This document shows, piece after piece, positions 22,019-35,255 of a stretch of 64,000 nucleotides of DNA (position 1 is its first letter; each line of letters begins with the position of its first letter). The stretch is taken from assembly GCF_003018255.1 (NCBI RefSeq), contig NZ_CP027440.1. One strand, given 5' to 3'. The stretch is from Escherichia coli. Its GTDB lineage: Bacteria > Pseudomonadota > Gammaproteobacteria > Enterobacterales > Enterobacteriaceae. The notes beneath the pieces were generated by a model, which had not been told where the DNA came from, searched no databases, and saw nothing but the letters and a program-made list of their open reading frames with translations. The position numbers and the translations under genes are program-made.

Positions 22019-23958
22019 ACAGCCTCCGGCGCAGTTTTCTGCGGGTTCACGCGCTTACGATAGCGAGGATCAAACAGGCACAGCAGCCCGCCCAATGCCA
22101 TCATCAGCCCGCCCGCCCAAATCCAGCGAACAAACGGTTTGTAGTAAAGACGCACGGCCCACGCGCCGTTTTCCAGCTCTTCACCGAGCGCGGCGTACAG
22201 GTCACGCGTGATGCCGCCGTCAATTGCCGCTTCGGTCATCATCGACCCGGCAGTGTTGTAATAACGTTTTTCCGCATACAGCACCGTTTCCGGCTTGCCA
22301 TCTCGCGTTACGCCGATAGTCGCCACACCGCCGCGCCAGTTCGGGCCAGTCACCTCTTTGACATCACGGAAGGTGAAGCGATATTCATGAATATCGACAC
22401 TATCGCCGGACTTCATGCGCACATCACGCTCAACGCTATAGTTCTGGCTAAAGGCAATACCAACAATTGTCACTGCCAGCCCCAGGTGAGCCGCCACCAT
22501 TCCCCAATAACTGAAGGTGGTTTTCGTGCCGCGTGAAATACGCAGCGCAGCTTCCGCAATTGCCAGCACCGCAATCCAGCAGGCCATTGCCAGGCCGAGC
22601 ACCGTCATCGCCACAACTTTGCTTTCGAACAGCCACGGCAGCAGCAGCGACAGCACCAGCGTTGAGATGAAGGCGATAATCAATAAATTGCGGATTTTAA
22701 GTGGGCGATCGCGCCCCCAGCGCACCAGAGGACCGACACCGAGCAGCAGCGCAAACGGCACCATCAGCCAGGTAAACATGGTGTTGAAGAACGGTTCGCC
22801 AATCGAAATACTGCCCAGTCCCAGTTGCTTGTGCACCAGCGGCAGCAGCGTCCCCAGTAATACCACCAGCATCGCGGCGACCAGCAAAACGTTGTTCGCT
22901 AACAGCAGAGATTCCCGCGACCACAGCGCATTGTTTACGCGTGAGCGAACTTTGTGTCCACGCGCGGCAAACAGCAGCAGCGAACCGCCAATCACCAACA
23001 CCATAAAGGCGAGGATAAACATACCGCGCGCCGGATCAGAGGCAAACGCGTGTACCGATACCAGCACGCCGGAACGCACGAGGAAAGTCCCCAACAGACA
23101 CAACGAGAAGGCACTGATTGCCAGCAGTAATGTCCACGCTTTGAAGCTGGCGCGTTGTTCAGTGACCGCCAGTGAGTGCATCAGCGCAGTCCCCACCAGC
23201 CACGGCATAAACGAGGCGTTTTCTACCGGATCCCAGAACCACCAGCCGCCCCAGCCGAGTTCGTAATAGGCCCATGCGGAACCGAGCACAATGCCGAGCG
23301 TCAGGAAGATCCACGCCGCCAGCGTCCACGGGCGGGTAAAACGCGCATAGGTGCTGTCCAGACGCCCACTCAACAAAGAAGCAATGGCGAAAGCAAACGC
23401 CACCGAGAAACCGACGTACCCCATATAGAGCAGAGGCGGATGGAAGATCAGCCCCGGATCCTGCAACAGCGGGTTAAGATCGCGCCCTTCAATCGGGAAA
23501 TTCGGCAGCGTGCGTGAGAATGGGTTAGAGGTAAAGAGAATGAACAGCAAAAAGCCGACACTGACCATCCCCATTATCGCCAGTACGCGGGCCACAATAT
23601 CCAGCGGAATACGCTGACTAAAAATCGCCACCGCAAAGGTCCAGCCGCTCATCAGCAGCACCCACAGCAGGAGCGAGCCTTCATGCGCGCCCCAGGTAGC
23701 CGCCACGCGATACCACACCGGAAGCTGGGTATTGGAGTTGCTGGCAACATAGGTGACGGTGAAGTCGTTGACCACGAAAGCATTGACCAGCACCAGAAAT
23801 GCGCCAGCCACAGACATAAACAGCAGCCAGGCAAACAAGCGGGAAGACGCCATCATGCGCGCATCTCCGCGCGCCACGCCCCATAGCGGATACACGGACA
23901 GCAGCAGCGCAATTCCCAGCGCCAGGCACAGCAGCCCGTTACCAATTTCCGGCATCAT
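22015..23958 (-). CDS. ccmF: cytochrome c heme lyase subunit CcmF
   Basis: 647 aa polytopic membrane protein; tryptophan-rich WGGWWFWD motif. Confidence 0.9.
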
Positions 23959-24434
23959 GATGCTGGGTCCTTATAAACACTCGCCGGGCGACGGTGGTTA
24001 GCTTCCATCGCTTTCTCAACTTCTGGCGGCGTATAGTTTTCATCATGTTTCGCCAGCACTTCTTTCGCGAGGATATGATTGCCTTTTTCCAGCTCGCCCT
24101 GCACCACAACGCCCTGCCCTTCACGGAACAGATCCGGCAAAATGCCTTCGTAAGAAACATCCACTGAGCCTTCAGCATCGTAAATGGTGAAGGTCACTTT
24201 CAGCGAATTGGGATCGCGCTGCACACTCCCCGGCATCACCATCCCGCCAACGCGCAGACGCTGACCGACTTCCGGCATTTGCTGAGTTTCACGCTTGCCG
24301 TAGAGAATTTCCCCCGGCGTATAAAAGAGATCGATATTCGAGCGCAGCGCATATAGCACCAGACCGATAGTCAGCGCCAGCCCTGCCAACACGGCACAGG
24401 CAATCCACAAGCGGTTTTTACGGCGAATATTCAT
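23955..24434 (-). CDS. ccmE: heme chaperone CcmE
   Basis: 159 aa; N-terminal TM anchor; operon position. Confidence 0.9.
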
Positions 24435-24640
24435 GCAGCCTCCTGCTGTTGCGCAGCACGTAAACGCGCCTCACGCGCCCGCTGTTGCGCCACGCCACGC
24501 AGAATTGCGCGATGTTGCATCACCGAGTGCACGACCAAAACCACCAGCGGAATAACGGTCATCACCACCGCCAACCAGACAAAAAAGGCGTAACCGCCCA
24601 TTGCGAAAAATTCATTCCAGGAAGCAAATGCAGGGGTCAT
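24431..24640 (-). CDS. ccmD: heme exporter small membrane protein CcmD
   Basis: 69 aa single-TM protein; operon position. Confidence 0.85.
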
Positions 24641-25374
24641 TTACGGCCTCTTTTCAGTATCAGTTCACTCACCCACGGACGGCGTTTTTCCATCAGCAAA
24701 ATCAAATTACGCATCCGCATCAGCGTCAGCGTGGCAGACAGGAGCAGGAAGCCAAAAATCGACCAGCGCAGCGGCGAACGCATCGCCGGATCGATACTTT
24801 GCTGCATCCGCGTTGATCCCTGATGCAGGGTGTTCCACCACTCAACGGAGTAATGAATAATCGGCAGATTCACCACGCCAATCAGCACCAGGATACCTGC
24901 CGCACGGCCAGCCAGACGACGGTCGTCGAAGGCGTGCCACAGGGCAATGACACCAACATACAGAAACAGCAGCACCAGTTCAGAAGTCAGACGTGCATCC
25001 CATACCCACCAGGTGCCCCACATCGGTTTTCCCCATGCAGAGCCGGTAACCAGGGCAATAAAGGTAAACACGGCACCAATGGGGGCCATCGCCGCCACCG
25101 CCAGGTTGGCCATTTTCATCTGCCAGACCAGGCCAATAAACGCTGCCACCGCCATTGATGCATAAATGCCCATCGACCAGATCGCCGCAGGCACATGCAG
25201 GTAGATAATGCGGTAGCTATTTCCCTGCTGATAATCAGCCGGAGCAAAGCCGAACCCCCAGATCCAGCCGACGGTAAGCACGACCACACTGGCAATTGCC
25301 AGCCACGGTATAAACCAGCCACAGATTTGATACAGCCGTGGTGGGATCGCCAGTTGATGCAGTGTTTTCCACAT
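24637..25374 (-). CDS. ccmC: heme exporter protein CcmC
   Basis: ORF track 24637-25398; start at MWKTLHQL gives 245 aa; WGTWWVWD (WWD) motif. Confidence 0.9.
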   Translation of the reverse strand: MWKTLHQLAIPPRLYQICGWFIPWLAIASVVVLTVGWIWGFGFAPADYQQGNSYRIIYLHVPAAIWSMGIYASMAVAAFIGLVWQMKMANLAVAAMAPIGAVFTFIALVTGSAWGKPMWGTWWVWDARLTSELVLLFLYVGVIALWHAFDDRRLAGRAAGILVLIGVVNLPIIHYSVEWWNTLHQGSTRMQQSIDPAMRSPLRWSIFGFLLLSATLTLMRMRNLILLMEKRRPWVSELILKRGRK

Positions 25375-25415
25375 AGTTTCGATACCAGACTCGAACAAAA
25401 ATCAGTAATCCAGCG

Positions 25416-26078
25416 TTATTGAATGCTGATTCGTAACGCTGCCGCCGTCGCAAAAGGACTTAATGTCGCGGTGCCTGCCAGCAACGCGCCTAAAATTGCC
25501 AGATACCCATCAACGGGCAAATGCATAGAAGCCGCGTCCATCGCGGCGGTGGCAAAGATGAGTAATGGGATAGTCAGCGGTAACACCAGTATGCTGAGCA
25601 GCACACCACCGCGCTTAAGTCCCACTGTCAGCGCCACGCCCGGCGCACCAAGAAAGCCAAGCGTAGGGGTTCCCAGCAGTAGCGTTAACGCCATCACTTG
25701 CCAGCCATAAACATCCATTCCCAGTAGCATTGCTACCAGGGGCGAAAGGATGAGTAACGGCAGACCGGTTACCATCCAGTGCGCCATCACCTTCGCCAGC
25801 ACAGCGGCGGGCAAGGGTAACGGCAACAACATCAATTGTTCAAGACTGCCGTCCTGCAAATCGTCACGGAACAGTCGCTCGAGTGCCAGCAAGGATGAAA
25901 GCAGCGCGGCAACCCAGATAATGCCCGGCGCAATACGCGCCAGCAGTTGCGGCTCCGGACCGATACTGAGCGGAAAAAGGGTAATTACAATCAGGAAGAA
26001 CCACAGCGGGTTGGCGATTTCGGCGCTATGGCGAAACGCTACGCGCAGCTCAAGACGGAAAATGCGCCAGAACATCAT
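25416..26078 (-). CDS. ccmB: heme exporter permease CcmB
   Basis: 220 aa polytopic membrane protein. Confidence 0.9.
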
Positions 26079-26698
26079 GCGGCCCCCGTTTGCGTCAGTG
26101 AAATGCGGCGAATTTTACTTTCAGCAACGTTGAGCGGCTGGTGGGTAGTCAGAATCACAATCCCCCCCTGCTCCGTATGCTGCGCCATACGCTGGGTCAG
26201 ACGATCGACGCCGTTAACGTCAATCGCGGTAAAAGGCTCGTCGAGTATCCATAACGTGGCACGGGTCAACCACAGACGCGCTAAAGCGACGCGGCGTTGT
26301 TGCCCGGCAGAAAGTTGATTTACCGGAATATCTTCGAATCCGGCAAGCCCGGCCTGCGCCAGGGCTTCCAGACATTGTGCGGTATCGCCATCGCGATGAT
26401 AAAAGTGCAGATTTTCTAACGCCGTCAGCCGGGTTTTGATCCCCGGCTGATGCCCTATCCATAACAGGTTTTGATGGTAGCTGTCGCGTACCTGATGCAA
26501 GGGCTGCCCTTGCCAGAGAACGTCACCCGCATCAGGGCGAGACAACCCCGTCAGCAAACGGAGAAGCGTTGTCTTCCCCGCGCCGTTGCTACCGGTGATT
26601 TGTACCCACTCTCCTGCGTTCAGCGTAAATGACAAGCCACTAAATAAGGTTCGTTCATCCCGCTCGCAAAGTAACTCTCTGGCTTCAAGCATACCCAC
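26075..26698 (-). CDS. ccmA: heme exporter ATPase CcmA
   Basis: 207 aa; Walker [10 protein letters not shown] and LSAGQQRR signature. Confidence 0.9.
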
Positions 26699-26710
26699 GC
26701 AATAACCCTG

Positions 26711-27313
26711 TTAAAAACCTGGCTCGACTTCGCGCATATCGGGCAGCTTGTGCGCTATCCCTTTATGGCAATCAATACAGGTTTGCCCATCTTTCACCGC
26801 CTGGTCATGCATCTTCGCGGCAACCGATTTCTGGGCGGTTGTATCCATATACTCGAAGTTGTGACAGTTACGGCACTCCTGCGAGTTATTGTCCTTCATG
26901 CGCCGCCACTCATTCTGTGCCATCGTCAGACGATGAGCTTCAAATTTCTGCGGCGTGTCAATAACGCCAAAAATTTTACCATACAGCTCTTTACTTGCTT
27001 TGAGCTTGCGTATCATCTTCGGCACAAACTCGTGCGGAACGTGACAATCCGGACAGGTCGCACGGACGCCGCTACGGTTGTTGTAGTGCACGGACTCCAT
27101 GTATTCCTGATACACCGTGTTACGCATTTCGTGGCAGCTAATGCAGAACTCTTCGGTATTGGCTTTTTCCATCCCGGTGTTAAAGCCGCCCCAGAAGACA
27201 ATGCCGCCGACAAAACCGATCAACAGCAGCGTCCCCAGCGCCAGACGGCTGGGGGTACGCCACCATTTCCACAGGCGCTTAATCAGACCAGGCTTACGGT
27301 CAGAATTTCCCAT
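26711..27313 (-). CDS. napC: membrane-bound tetraheme cytochrome c NapC
   Basis: 200 aa; four CxxCH motifs (CISCH, CPDCH, CRNCH, CIDCH). Confidence 0.9.
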   Translation of the reverse strand: MGNSDRKPGLIKRLWKWWRTPSRLALGTLLLIGFVGGIVFWGGFNTGMEKANTEEFCISCHEMRNTVYQEYMESVHYNNRSGVRATCPDCHVPHEFVPKMIRKLKASKELYGKIFGVIDTPQKFEAHRLTMAQNEWRRMKDNNSQECRNCHNFEYMDTTAQKSVAAKMHDQAVKDGQTCIDCHKGIAHKLPDMREVEPGF

Positions 27314-27322
27314 AATAACCTC

Positions 27323-27772
27323 TTATTTCCCGTAACCTTTTGACGGGGTAAAGGTATTCCCCACGATTGGCGCGGTATCAGCCTGCGGCACGTGACATTG
27401 CAGACAGAAGTAACGACGTGGAGCAACTTCCGCGCCCACTTTGCCGTCGCTGTCCATAAAGTGAGTAGGACTTATGCGCGGCGCGCCAGTGGTGCGATAG
27501 CTTTCGACACCGTGGCACTGCAAGCAGCGGTTGGTATTGGTCGTTACCTGATAACCTTCAACGCTATGCGGGATCATTGGCGGCTGATTCACATAGTTCA
27601 GCGGCATCCGTTCCTGCTCTTTTGGCATCCGAATGGCCCCTTCCTGCGTCCCGGATACTTCCGGCGACTGGCTAAAATCGACGCCATTAGCCGCCCAAAC
27701 CGCGCCGCTCACCACCAGGGCCAGCATCGCCGTCCATTGACACAGCGCTTTCTTCAGGTCATGGCTTTTCAT
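27323..27772 (-). CDS. napB: periplasmic nitrate reductase diheme cytochrome c subunit NapB
   Basis: ORF track 27323-27793; start at MKSHDLKK gives 149 aa; two CLQCH heme motifs. Confidence 0.9.
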   Translation of the reverse strand: MKSHDLKKALCQWTAMLALVVSGAVWAANGVDFSQSPEVSGTQEGAIRMPKEQERMPLNYVNQPPMIPHSVEGYQVTTNTNRCLQCHGVESYRTTGAPRISPTHFMDSDGKVGAEVAPRRYFCLQCHVPQADTAPIVGNTFTPSKGYGK

Positions 27773-28632
27773 GATTTCGCTCCCGAACTCCATCGTGTAG
27801 TTATTGTAAATACATCCTCAGAACAGACATCCACGCAGCGACCGCACGTCATGCAATCGCGACTGGTGACCTGCACCGGGCTTTGTTCATCCAGCACCGG
27901 GGCACGTAGCACATGCGGTTCCGGGCAAACATGAAAACAATCCATACAGCGGTTACATTTCTGCCGATCGGTGGCCGCAACGGTAATCACACCTTTGCTA
28001 CCCAGCACGCCATACAGTGCACCAACCGGACAAATGTGCCCGCACCAGCCGTGTTCAACGACCAGTAGATCAAATAAAAACAGCGCGAGAATAAGCAGCG
28101 CGCCGCTGCCGAAGCCCATTACCAGGCTACGCCCCATCAGAGAAACGGGGTTGATCCATTCCCAGATGAGCGTGCCAGTTAAGGCCGATCCCACCAGAAT
28201 GACCACCAACAGCACGTAGCGAATATGGCGAGGGATCGTCGCAGACTGATTGAGGTCAAATCGTCTGCGTAACCAATTTGCTAAGTCGGTAATCGGGTTC
28301 AGCGGACAGACCCAGCTGCAAAATAATCGCTTTCCTGCCAGGGCGTAGAGCACGGTGATAATCACCGCACCGGTCAACGCCACCGTGGCAGGCAGATGAC
28401 CGCTGGCAAGACTTTGCAGCGTCATCAGCGGATCGGTCAGTGGAACGGTGTCGAATAACAGGCTACTGCTGTAGTTGCCGTGCAAGATCCACACACCAAA
28501 CCACGGACCGCTCAAAAACATCCCCAGCACGAAGAACTGACAAAGGCGACGTAACACCAGCCAACGGTGACTGCGCCACCAGCCTTTTTTCTCCAGCGCC
28601 TCGCGCCCGGCGTCACGTTTACGATTTGCCAT
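27769..28632 (-). CDS. napH: membrane ferredoxin-type protein NapH
   Basis: 287 aa; TM segments plus C-terminal Cys clusters. Confidence 0.9.
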
Positions 28633-29314
28633 TGTTCCCCTCCAGCCAGCCGAAGCGGTAATGGTGACCTAACTCCCCTTTCGCCAGTGACAGCGGTAAC
28701 ACCTTGATTGCCGGTTGTTCCAGCACGCACACTTTTTCGCACTTACCGCAACCGGTACAGGCGTCGCTGTGAACCGTCGGCAGAAAGCGGGCGTGCTTAC
28801 CGGTACGCGTGTTGCGCTCCAGCTCCAGGGTGATGGCCTCATCAATTTTCGGGCATTCGCGATAACAAACATCGCAGCGCAGCCCCTGAAAGTTGAGACA
28901 GTTTTCCTGGTCCACCAGTACCGCCAGCCCCATCCGCGCGTCGTCGATCGATTCGATCTCACGATCCAGCGCACCGCTCGGGCACACTTTGGCGCACGGA
29001 ATGTCCTCACACATTTCGCAAGGAATATCCCGCGCAACAAAGTATGGCGTACCTGCCGACAGGCCAGAGGCCAGCGTCGCCAGTTTTAAGGTGTCGTAAG
29101 GGCAAGCCTGAACACACTGACCGCAACGCACACAGGCACTGGCAAAGGCGTTCTCGTTTATGGCTCCGGGCGGGCGCAACCGCACGCCAGATGCGCGTGC
29201 GGTTTGCTGTTGTAACCCCAGCGCCACACCCACGGCAGCCAGCCCGCCTGCTGTGCGAACAACATCGCGCAGAAAGCGGCGGCGACCATTTTGAGGTTTC
29301 GCTGACCGGGACAT
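28619..29314 (-). CDS. napG: periplasmic ferredoxin-type protein NapG
   Basis: 231 aa; twin-arginine signal ([19 protein letters not shown]); multiple CxxCxxCxxxCP clusters. Confidence 0.9.
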
Positions 29315-29320
29315 AATGGC

Positions 29321-31807
29321 TTACACCTTCTCCAGTTTGACCGCGCACTTCTTGAAGTCCGTCTCTTTCGAGAGCGGATCGGTCGCGTCCAGCGTCAGTT
29401 TGTTAACCAGCTGTGCGGCATCGAAGAACGGCATGTACACCAGGCCCTGCGGCGGACGGTTACGACCGCGCGTTTCGACAATCGAGATCACTTCGCCACG
29501 GCGAGAAACCACTTTCACTTTGTCGCCACGGCGCAGATCGCGCGCTTTCGCATCCAGCGGGTGAATAAACAGGACCGCTTCCGGGAAGGCGCGGTGCAGT
29601 TCCGGTACACGGCGAGTCATACTGCCGGTATGCCAGTGCTCCAGAACGCGTCCGGTAGAGAGCCACAGGTCGTACTCTTCATCCGGTGCCTCCGCCGCCG
29701 GTTCGAACGGCAGCGCGAAGATCACCGCTTTGCCATCCGGTTTACCGTAGAACTTGTAGCCTTCGCCCGCTTTCACGTACGGGTCGTTACCTTCGCTGTA
29801 ACGCCACTGCGTTTCTTTACCGTTCACTACCGGCCAGCGCAGACCGCGTGCTTTGTGGTAATCATCGAACGGCGCCAGATCGTGACCGTGACCGCGACCA
29901 AACCATGCGTACTCTTCGAACAGCCCTTTTTGCAGATAGAAGCCTAGCTCGCGGGATTCATCGTTCAGCTGATCTTCCGCCAGTTCGGATAGCGGGTATT
30001 TGCTCACTTCCGGGGTGGCATACAGAATTTCGTACAGCGTTTTGCCACGCAGTTCCGGTTTCTTCGCCAGCAGATCTTCCGGCCATACTTCTTCAGTTTT
30101 GAAGCGGCGGGAGAACTGGACTAACTGCCAGAGATCCGATTTCGCTTCGCCCGGTGCCTGTACCTGCTGACGCCAGAACTGAGTACGGCGTTCGGCGTTA
30201 CCGTAAGCACCCTCTTTTTCTACCCACATTGCGGTCGGCAGGATCAAGTCGGCGGCCAGAGCACTGACTGTCGGATACGGATCGGAGACGATGATGAAGT
30301 TGCGCGGATCGCGCCAGCCCGGCATACGCTCTTCATTGATGTTCGGCCCGGCCTGCATGTTGTTGGTACACATGGTCCAGTAAACATTCAGCTTGCCGTC
30401 TTTCAGCGCACGGTCTTGTGCTACCGCATGCAGACCGATTTTTGCCGGAATGGTGCCGCTCGGGATATTCCACTTCTTCTCGCAGATATCACGATGTTTC
30501 TCGTTAGTCACCACCATGTCCGCAGGCAGACGGTGAGCAAAGGTGCCCACTTCACGCGCAGTACCACACGCGGAAGGCTGCCCGGTCAGGGAGAACGGAC
30601 CGCAACCCGGCTGGGAAATTTTGCCGGTCAGCAGGTGCAGGTTGTAGACCAGGTTGTTAGCCCACACGCCACGAGTATGCTGGTTGAAGCCCATCGTCCA
30701 GTAGGAGATGACTTTCTTGTTCGGATCGGCATACAGCTGCGCCAGTTGTTCTAACTGGTCTTTCGGCACGCCGGTCATTTCGGCAGTTTTTTCCAGCGTA
30801 TACTCAGCAACGAAGGCTTTGTAATCTTCAAAGCTCATCGGTTCGGAGGCGTCAGAACCCGGATTCTTCGCTGCTTTTTCCAGCGGATGGGTCGGACGTA
30901 AACCGTAGCCGATGTCCGTCGCCCCTTTGCGCAGGTTAACGTGTTTGCTGAAGAAGTCCTGATTTATCGCATTGTTTTGAATGATATAGTTGGCGATATA
31001 GTTCAGGATCACCAGGTCAGATTGCGGCGTAAAGATGATGCCGTTATCCGCCAGCTCGAAGCTACGATGCTGGTAGGTAGAAAGCACCGCCACGGTAACG
31101 TTCTGGTTAGAGAGACGACGGTTAGTGATGCGCGACCAGAGGATCGGGTGCATCTCCGCCATGTTTGCGCCCCACAGCACAAACGCGTCAGCCTGCTCGA
31201 TGTCGTCATAGCAGCCCATCGGCTCATCCATACCAAAGGTACGCATAAAGCCAACTACCGCCGACGCCATACAGTGACGCGCGTTCGGGTCGATGTTGTT
31301 CGAACGGAAGCCCGCTTTGAACAGCTTGGACGCGGCATAACCTTCCCAGATAGTCCACTGACCAGAACCGAACATACCGATCGATTCCGGCCCTTTTTCT
31401 TTCAGGGCGGTTTTGAATTTCTCTTCCATCACATCGAAGGCTTGATCCCAGGTGATTGGGGTAAATTCGCCTTCTTTGTCATATTTACCGTTTTTCATAC
31501 GCAGCAGCGGCTGCGTCAAACGGTCTTTACCGTACATGATTTTGGGCAGGAAATAGCCCTTAATGCAGTTCAGACCACGGTTAACCGGTGCGTCCGGGTC
31601 GCCCTGACAGGCCACCACACGCCCCTGCTGCGTTCCGACCAGAACGCCGCAACCCGTACCGCAGAAACGGCACGGCGCTTTATCCCATTTAATGGCTTCC
31701 TGCTGACCAACAACGGCGCGGGCAACGCCCGGCACGCTGAGACCGGCAGCCGCCGCAGCGGCCGCAACGGCGTTAGCTTTCATAAAGCTACGACGACTGA
31801 GTTTCAT
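29321..31807 (-). CDS. napA: periplasmic nitrate reductase catalytic subunit NapA (molybdoenzyme)
   Basis: 828 aa; Tat signal [23 protein letters not shown]; N-terminal Cys cluster [10 protein letters not shown]. Confidence 0.95.
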
Positions 31808-32067
31808 GGTGTTTCCTCACCTTGCTCTTCCTGCTGGTGATAAACCAGCGACACCGCCAGCACGCCCTCTACGTTGCGTACTGACTCAATGGTTTGAATC
31901 AGCGTTTCGCTGTCTTCTGCTTCCACCACCACAATCAACTGACCGCTCGGCGCGTCGCTGACAGCAACTTCACAGCCGGGAAAGGCGTTCAGTTGGGTGC
32001 TGATGTCTGAAATTCGTTCGCTTTTGGCCTGCACGACCAGGCTGCAAACTTGCCAGTTAGTGTGCAT
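31804..32067 (-). CDS. napD: NapA maturation chaperone NapD
   Basis: 87 aa; overlaps napA start. Confidence 0.9.
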
Positions 32068-32551
32068 GGAGATACTCCGCAGTTATGGCTGATACCGGAC
32101 AGCTGGCTGCACATGCTCCACATCCGTTGCAAAGTTGGCTATTAAGTTGCGGCTGGTAGATCCCGGAGAGCGTCGGGCGAAAGATAATTGCCATTGGCTC
32201 ACAGCTATCCTGACAGCGGCGGCATTCAACTGACTGATACGCCAGGCACGCCTCCCCGATGGTGAACAGCAAATCCCAGGCCCTGGTGTGGCGCGGAGAA
32301 AATAGCGATTCGGGGCAAGCCTGCGCGCAGGCGTAACAGAAGCTGCACTCGTTATTTTTGAAATTAACGCTCGGATAGCCACCCGCGCCGCGTTGCAGAA
32401 TGTTGTTTTCACAAGCATTAATACAGGCGTCGCAGCGAGTGCAATGGGTCAGAAAATGAGATTCATCACCGGACCAGGGCGGACGGATACCGTTACTGGC
32501 TTTGCGCCAGCGACCAGTGAGTATGCCCCGACGGGATGCATCAATCTTCAC
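32057..32551 (-). CDS. napF: ferredoxin-type protein NapF
   Basis: 164 aa with several 4Fe-4S Cys motifs; first gene of nap operon. Confidence 0.9.
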   Translation of the reverse strand: MKIDASRRGILTGRWRKASNGIRPPWSGDESHFLTHCTRCDACINACENNILQRGAGGYPSVNFKNNECSFCYACAQACPESLFSPRHTRAWDLLFTIGEACLAYQSVECRRCQDSCEPMAIIFRPTLSGIYQPQLNSQLCNGCGACAASCPVSAITAEYLHAH

Positions 32552-32659
32552 ATTGACCTTCCATCATTAACGCGCTCTGAAAATTGAGAGCGACCAAATA
32601 AACCGCATAATTAATAAGCCATTTTTATAGCCGCTAAGATATTAAAGGATGTGTCAAAG

Positions 32660-32824
32660 ATGCATACCCCGATCGGGGTAAAACCTGTAGCAGGATCAAA
32701 AGAGTGGCAGGAAGCGTGGCAAAAACGGGCTTTTGCTCACATTTCAAATGGTTATAAACATATTTATATAGCGATTAATTCGCCAGAGATATTTCTGCTG
32801 GTTTGTTTTCTCATCAGAATTTAA
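32660..32824 (+). CDS. yojO: small ORF (54 codons) in napF-eco intergenic region; coding status uncertain
   Basis: ATG at 32660 preceded by AAGGA; translation MHTPIGVKPVAGSKEWQEAWQKRAFAHISNGYKHIYIAINSPEIFLLVCFLIRI; I recall a 54-aa yojO annotated here in K-12; ORF overlaps the NarP/FNR sites. Confidence 0.35.
   Translation: MHTPIGVKPVAGSKEWQEAWQKRAFAHISNGYKHIYIAINSPEIFLLVCFLIRI
32665..32680. promoter_or_regulatory. NarP/NarL 7-2-7 heptamer pair in napF promoter
   Basis: Perfect palindrome TACCCCG-AT-CGGGGTA about 115 bp upstream of napF start codon. Confidence 0.75.
32686..32699. promoter_or_regulatory. FNR-like site in napF promoter
   Basis: TGTAG-N4-ATCAA (one consensus half-site TTGAT on the napF strand), centred 20 bp upstream of the NarP site centre. 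Confidence 0.55.
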
Positions 32825-32958
32825 CACTAAAAGAGCAGGTAAAATTATCTGAATGTTCTTTAAGTTATTCATAAAGCAAATTAATAAATCTGATGAATAT
32901 GTTAACCTTCAGCGACATCATCGGTGAAAACCTATAAATGAAGAAGGAAAGCAAAAAA

Positions 32959-33447
32959 ATGAAGACCATTCTACCTGCAGTATTGTTTGCCGCTTTCGCC
33001 ACCACTTCCGCCTGGGCGGCAGAAAGCGTCCAGCCACTGGAAAAAATCGCACCTTATCCACAAGCTGAAAAAGGCATGAAGCGCCAGGTGATTCAGTTAA
33101 CCCCGCAAGAAGATGAATCTACCCTGAAAGTAGAACTGTTAATCGGCCAGACGCTGGAAGTCGATTGCAATTTGCATCGTCTCGGCGGGAAGCTGGAAAG
33201 CAAAACGCTGGAAGGCTGGGGCTATGATTATTATGTCTTTGATAAAGTCAGTTCCCCGGTTTCGACGATGATGGCCTGCCCGGATGGCAAGAAAGAGAAG
33301 AAATTTGTCACCGCGTATCTGGGCGATGCCGGAATGCTGCGTTATAACAGCAAGCTGCCGATCGTGGTGTATACGCCAGACAATGTAGATGTGAAGTACC
33401 GCGTCTGGAAGGCGGAAGAGAAAATTGACAACGCGGTAGTTCGCTAA
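32959..33447 (+). CDS. eco: ecotin, periplasmic serine protease inhibitor
   Basis: ORF track 32938-33447; ATG at 32959 ([20 protein letters not shown]) gives 162 aa. Confidence 0.95.
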
Positions 33448-33461
33448 ACTGCTGTGAAGTG

Positions 33462-33592
33462 CTGCAACCGCCAGGTCGGATAAGGCGGTTACGCCGCATC
33501 CGACATCTAACGCCCGAGCCGGTTGCCTGATGCGACGCTGACGCGTCTTATCTGCATACGCCACATCCGGCATACCATGCCGGATGTGGCAC
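33462..33592. repeat. cluster of REP palindromes (BIME-like) between convergent eco and mqo
   Basis: gtcggataaggcg...cgccgcatccgac; tgcctgatgcgacgctgacgcgtcttatc; ccacatccggcat...atgccggatgtgg. Confidence 0.7.
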
Positions 33593-33596
33593 ATCA

Positions 33597-35255
<1,659 letters not shown>

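Follow-up and report, generated by a model that had tools for sequence, protein, structure and literature searches.

The 386-bp gap between napF and eco in the Escherichia coli stretch analysed here (64,000 nucleotides in all, referred to below as the window) is very probably the control region of the napF operon as it has been characterised in K-12; we put the probability of this reading at about 95%, and no observation contradicts it. It contains an FNR-like dyad distal to napF and a 7-2-7 palindrome for NarP or NarL proximal to it, with exactly 20 bp from centre to centre (Table 1). The reading is carried by these sites and their spacing, by the identity with K-12, by the conservation across genera and by the identities of the surrounding genes, all of which were observed directly. 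The initial annotation, made from the letters of the window, had proposed that the pair fits the FNR plus NarP architecture of the napF promoter and that the FNR-like site is centred 20 bp further upstream than the palindrome. Both proposals hold: the centres are 20 bp apart with the dyad on the side away from napF, and order, spacing, K-12 identity and the published positions at -40/-49 all agree. Control of napF by FNR and NarP is already known and nothing in it is new. The value of the result lies elsewhere, namely in that a reading of raw sequence alone correctly recognised a textbook bacterial control region.

Table 1. Coordinates of the features discussed in the text. Positions are those of the window; signed positions are relative to the computed P1 transcription start; napF lies on the minus strand.
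Feature	Position	Strand	Remarks
narP, response regulator for the 7-2-7 site	19730..20377	+	NF007708 equivalog, 455.5 bits (cut-off 343)
napFDAGHBC-ccmABCDEFGH, target operon	20412..32551	-	From the ORF list; gene order as in the K-12 annotation
P1 transcription start (inferred; the napF-strand base is A)	32628	-	Derived from the heptamer centres at -40/-49 (PMC4549865); corresponds to K-12 NC_000913.3 position 2303574
Putative P1 (main promoter) -10 hexamer TATCTT	32636..32641	-	-13..-8
Putative P2 (overlapping minor promoter) -10 hexamer TAATAT	32639..32644	-	3 bp upstream of the P1 hexamer
NarP/NarL 7-2-7 site TACCCCG-AT-CGGGGTA (TACCCCGATCGGGGTA)	32665..32680	.	Centre 32672.5
Probable FNR site TTGAT-CCTG-CTACA (napF strand)	32686..32699	-	Centre 32692.5 (-64.5)
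CRP-like stretch TGTGA-GCAAAA-GCCCG	32726..32741	-	Centre -105.5, upstream of the FNR site
ModE-like dyad CGCTATATA-N6-TTTATAACC	32750..32773	-	Centre -133.5, upstream of the FNR site

Gene map of the nap-ccm locus

According to the ORF list napF runs on the minus strand from a GTG start codon at 32551 to 32057, and its product is identified as NapF by the NCBIfam model TIGR00402 (244.5 bits against a cut-off of 102.2). The ORFs of NapD and NapA, both of which come after NapF, match equivalog models as well. On the other side the next plus-strand gene (eco) is divergent to napF and its ORF starts at 32938, which leaves the gap of 386 bp (32552..32937). The far end of the nap-ccm operon is occupied by narP, convergent with ccmH and 12.3-12.9 kb away from the 7-2-7 site. 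The coordinates claimed earlier for this gene, at a distance of about 12 kb, are right: its product matches NF007708 and is 99% identical to the NarP of K-12. It had also been suggested that regulator gene and target promoter bracket the operon. As a description of the map this is real, and the same order (narP-ccmH...napF-eco) is seen in K-12, but we found no evidence that it has a mechanistic role. A search of 19000..34000 for Rfam families gave no match.

One difference in the layout concerns the narP/ccmH interval, where K-12 has an extra 176 bp (REP-like) that are absent here (window 20378..20411 against K-12 segment 3149..3358). Similar GC-rich hairpins stand on both flanks of the K-12 insertion (TAGCCCGATGG...CATCGGGC). 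The single GC-rich hairpin kept in the window between narP and ccmH is probably a two-way terminator shared by both genes.

The NarP/NarL palindrome

The sequence TACCCCGATCGGGGTA is a perfect 16-bp palindrome, in which two inverted heptamers stand exactly 2 bp apart. Each heptamer (TACCCCG) fits TACYYMT at 6/7 positions, position 7 being a G and not a T. The term perfect heptamer pair, as used in the initial annotation, is consequently correct for the palindrome but not for the consensus. The exact 16-mer is found only once in the window, even with up to 3 mismatches allowed (0.11 expected). Less specific searches are less telling: TACYYMT-NN-AKRRGTA with up to 2 mismatches gives 2 sites in the window against 2.16 expected, i.e. 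no enrichment, and of perfect 16-bp palindromes, whatever their sequence, the window has 3 where shuffling gives a mean of 1.0.

Katsir et al. 2015 placed the 7-2-7 site of napF at '-40 to -49' (PMC4549865); these figures refer to the centres of the two heptamers, so that the site as a whole is centred at -44.5. Four genes with reported 7-2-7 sites are named in the MotifAdjuster paper (fdnG, napF, nirB and nrfA), along with the statement that NarP binds the 7-2-7 arrangement only (PMC2718512); napF is absent from the supplements of that paper. Binding of phosphorylated NarP and NarL has been published for the identical K-12 sequence and would be expected at TACCCCGATCGGGGTA in the window too.

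It might be argued that the palindrome is mainly a NarL repressor site, with NarP playing a minor part. NarL and NarP share the 7-2-7 arrangement and the affinity of NarL for such sites is high (PMC2718512, PMC4549865); moreover, NarL-P bound at napF blocks the binding of NarP-P (PMC9262595). Still, we consider this highly improbable given that NarP-P is an activator and napF a NarP-dependent promoter (PMC9262595, PMC3688515). Repression by NarL is half of the accepted napF mechanism and no true rival to a control region at which NarP activates.

The FNR-like dyad and its look-alike

Read on the plus strand, the FNR-like 14-mer is TGTAGCAGGATCAA (TGTAG-CAGG-ATCAA). It agrees with TTGAT-N4-ATCAA at 7/10 positions (3 mismatches), where one half-site is perfect and the other poor. 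As many as 347 sites in the window are equal or better (about 0.005 per position), and the chance of meeting such a site at exactly this offset is about 0.5%. On its sequence alone the dyad is unremarkable.

A closer match to the FNR consensus is present in the vicinity: TTGAGAGCGACCAA at 32584..32597 has 2 mismatches, against 3 for the functional site. It sits in the napF leader (+32..+45) and partly inside the least conserved stretch of the alignment, with an identity of 0.49. There is a reusable lesson here, since the functional FNR site scores below a non-conserved look-alike some 100 bp off. Left to a weight-matrix scan, the choice would fall on the wrong site; spacing and conservation across species lead to the right one.

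An FNR ChIP peak of low motif score in the napF/yojO gap was reported by Myers et al. 2013 (PMC3688515). In Table S5 of that paper its centre is given as 2301669 (older K-12 numbering) and its PatSer ln(p) as -5.37, among the weakest in the table; the peak was called by only one of three ChIP-seq callers and by ChIP-chip (PMC3688515). Such a weak score is consistent with a site that matches at 7/10 positions. The older and the current K-12 numbering were calibrated on nirB, whose perfect FNR dyad could be located in the current record (offset of about 2,001, against a general figure of about 1,976). With offsets in this range the peak lies approximately 7-32 bp from the FNR-like dyad, and peak centres are good to about 25 bp. 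A DNase I footprint of FNR at napF was reportedly obtained by Darwin and co-workers in 1998.

The nirB promoter of E. coli is a useful comparison. It uses the same two regulator classes, through a single 7-2-7 site (TACCCATTAAGGAGTA) and a single FNR dyad, but there the FNR dyad (TTGATTTACATCAA) is perfect and next to the promoter, and the 7-2-7 site stands 28 bp further upstream. In napF the order is reversed: the weak FNR dyad is found 20 bp upstream of a 7-2-7 site that adjoins the promoter. This reversed arrangement is a recognised 'unconventional' feature of napF.

Conservation in Escherichia coli and other genera

Alignment with K-12 MG1655 shows not one difference between the FNR-like site and the napF start codon, both included. 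The eight single-base differences that do occur all fall further upstream than the FNR site, at about -75 to -190, and neither these nor the K-12 insertion between narP and ccmH touch the two sites. Because of this identity, the mapping of the K-12 napF promoter applies base for base to the window. The same holds more widely within the species: of 5,426 complete E. coli genomes, 5,421 match an 801-bp stretch around the site; every match is chromosomal, and the annotations there are napF, yojO or hypothetical protein, and eco. An 86-bp core is identical in 4,947 of the 5,421 genomes, while the surrounding 801 bp reaches at least 99% identity in only 1,255.

To go beyond the species we searched for the locus with NapF, which gave at least seven usable orthologues (E. 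albertii, a divergent E. coli, four Citrobacter and Leclercia). A phylogenetic footprint of nine sequences from three genera (Escherichia, Citrobacter and Leclercia) was then scored per column. Among the matches listed, the 7-2-7 site shows a mean identity of 0.94 over the nine sequences and its outer TACC...GGGGTA is unchanged in 9/9; differences occur only at heptamer positions 5 and 7, the latter being G, A or C. Two Citrobacter sequences among these matches have position 7 altered symmetrically in both heptamers (TACCCCAATTGGGGTA), with the palindrome still perfect. For the FNR 14-mer the mean identity is 0.87 over the nine aligned sequences (again among the matches listed): the TTGATC half is constant in 9/9 and the poor half varies (CTACA, CAACA or CTACT). 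No indel is seen in the interval from FNR to NarP, and the 20-bp spacing is kept in all aligned orthologues among the matches listed. Stretches close to the napF sites fall to 0.49-0.56 identity in the same nine sequences, among the matches listed, while the motifs hold.

In summary of the promoter as a whole, Citrobacter and Leclercia share with E. coli the TTGAT half-site, the outer heptamer bases, the 20-bp spacing and TATCTT, but differ at heptamer position 7, in the right half of the FNR site and at the TAATAT hexamer, of which the first T is replaced by A (AAATAT). For Leclercia there is no alignment upstream of the FNR site.

An alternative source of this conservation would be coding constraint on yojO, a small divergent gene overlapping the control region, instead of the binding of regulators. 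A plus-strand ORF (32651..32824) does span the NarP, FNR, CRP-like and ModE-like sites, and in E. coli genomes it is annotated as yojO or hypothetical protein. However, stop codons shorten the frame in E. albertii, the divergent E. coli, all four Citrobacter and Leclercia, whereas the motifs persist; the ORF matches no NCBIfam family; and conservation tracks the boundaries of the motifs, not codon positions. We therefore give coding constraint very little credence. Probably yojO is no genuine gene, the conserved N-terminus of its frame being regulatory DNA read as codons.

The least credible view of all is that the two motifs match by coincidence and regulate nothing, the true napF elements being placed elsewhere in the napF-eco gap. 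The window counts for the FNR-like site (347 equally good at 3 mismatches) and the degenerate 7-2-7 consensus (2 against 2.16) and the better score of TTGAGAGCGACCAA speak for it, but motifs and spacing stay constant in all three genera where neighbouring sequence diverges (among the matches listed), TTGAGAGCGACCAA lies in the transcribed leader and partly in the 0.49-identity stretch, and the K-12-identical sequence has its site published at -40/-49 with an FNR ChIP peak nearby. What lifts the FNR/NarP pair above chance is the identity with K-12 together with the cross-genus conservation, and not the statistics within the window, which by themselves are weak to moderate.

Predicted transcription start and core promoter

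From the heptamer centres at -40/-49 (PMC4549865) and the window coordinates we infer the P1 start given in Table 1. Counted from this start, the FNR dyad is centred at -64.5 and the ModE-like dyad at -133.5, TATCTT covers -13..-8, and the leader up to the GTG at 32551 is 77 nt long. The two sites had been predicted to lie near -44.5 and -64.5, and no start incompatible with these positions came to light: the computed +1 yields the -64.5 for FNR. The studies of Darwin and Stewart in 1995, of Darwin and co-workers in 1998 and of Stewart and co-workers in 2003 are said to place Fnr at -64.5 and NarP at -44.5; a pair of overlapping promoters, P1 and P2, separated by about 3 nt is reportedly described there too.

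By its position, and in keeping with the 2003 study of Stewart and co-workers, TATCTT would be the -10 hexamer of P1. Among the matches listed, the stretch -13..-7 (TATCTTA) is identical in 9/9 aligned sequences. The location of TAATAT, 3 bp upstream of TATCTT, agrees with a second start some 3 nt before the first, and TAATAT would accordingly be the -10 hexamer of P2. That such a second promoter exists is stated in the title of the 2003 paper of Stewart and co-workers, which PMC9262595 cites.

A generic sigma-70 scan made no call on the napF strand, which is expected, and uninformative, for an activator-dependent promoter without a match to the -35 element. A perfect TTGACA hexamer does occur on the napF strand (32657..32652, -29..-24) and was rejected as a -35 candidate: its distance to TAATAT is 7 bp and to TATAAA 22 bp, so that no -10-like hexamer has the right spacing to it. 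Only the ACA of this hexamer is unchanged across species (nine aligned sequences, among the matches listed).

Between NarP site and -10 element, the spacer (32642..32664 on the napF strand, -36..-14) is nearly invariant across the three genera, among the matches listed, and includes ACACATCCT. The conserved block reads TGCAyCTyTnACACATCCT, from about -36 to -18. Conservation of -36..-14 to this degree exceeds what a promoter spacer needs. IscR is described as a nap repressor in a 2021 review (PMC8139620), and NsrR, according to a 2025 review, also acts on nap (PMC12285233). The block might be an operator for one of these two reported repressors, although we regard this candidate as rather doubtful; if true, the core promoter would be a three-protein switch. 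A resemblance to an NsrR half-site (AAGATGCATAC, 32657..32667) was considered and set aside, with 19 matches in the window against 24.5 expected and a weaker match in Citrobacter.

Elements upstream of the FNR site

The operator consensus of ModE is CGnTATATA-N6-TATATAnCG. The ModE-like dyad departs from this consensus at 2 positions; allowing up to 3 mismatches brings up no other site in the window (0.03 expected). The alignment shows it to be conserved in Escherichia and Citrobacter, among the matches listed. Its 6-bp spacer contains one of the differences from K-12, with a G here against an A there. McNicholas and Gunsalus are said to have located the ModE site of nap at -133.5 in 2002. A role of ModE as activator of nap is stated in the 2021 review (PMC8139620).

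The CRP-like stretch matches the consensus in its left half only, at a mean identity of 0.86 over the nine aligned sequences (among the matches listed). A scan of the window for the CRP consensus at up to 2 mismatches did not recover the conserved TGTGA stretch, which makes a weak match by sequence. In 2009 Stewart and co-workers reportedly described a Crp site at napF, placed further upstream than the Fnr site.

Regulation of the napF operon

Protein binding, activation and the competition between NarL and NarP are drawn here from the literature. FNR and NarP-P activate napF, and NarL antagonises them (Brosse et al., PMC9262595; also PMC3688515). Transcription of nap via FNR requires co-activation by NarP (PMC3688515). 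As a reporter for NarP, Brosse et al. used a napF fragment from -85 to +19 (PMC9262595).

Applied to the window, these data would give the following sequence of events. Under anaerobiosis FNR would occupy the weak dyad centred at -64.5. At low nitrate, or with nitrite, NarQ would phosphorylate NarP, and a dimer of NarP-P would settle on the 7-2-7 palindrome at -44.5, overlapping the -35 region. FNR and NarP-P could then jointly activate the main promoter P1 (TATCTT, with +1 near 32628), from which napFDAGHBC-ccmA-H would be transcribed. At high nitrate NarL-P would compete for the same palindrome without activating, so that nap expression would peak at low nitrate. Additional input from upstream might come from ModE (-133.5) and probably from CRP (about -105).

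A minor observation concerns the inside of the operon. An FNR ChIP signal at napC (2296259, old K-12 numbering) is among the peaks that Myers et al. dropped from their analysis (PMC3688515). In the window napC corresponds to 26711..27313, and the signal is close to the place where an internal ccm promoter would be expected.
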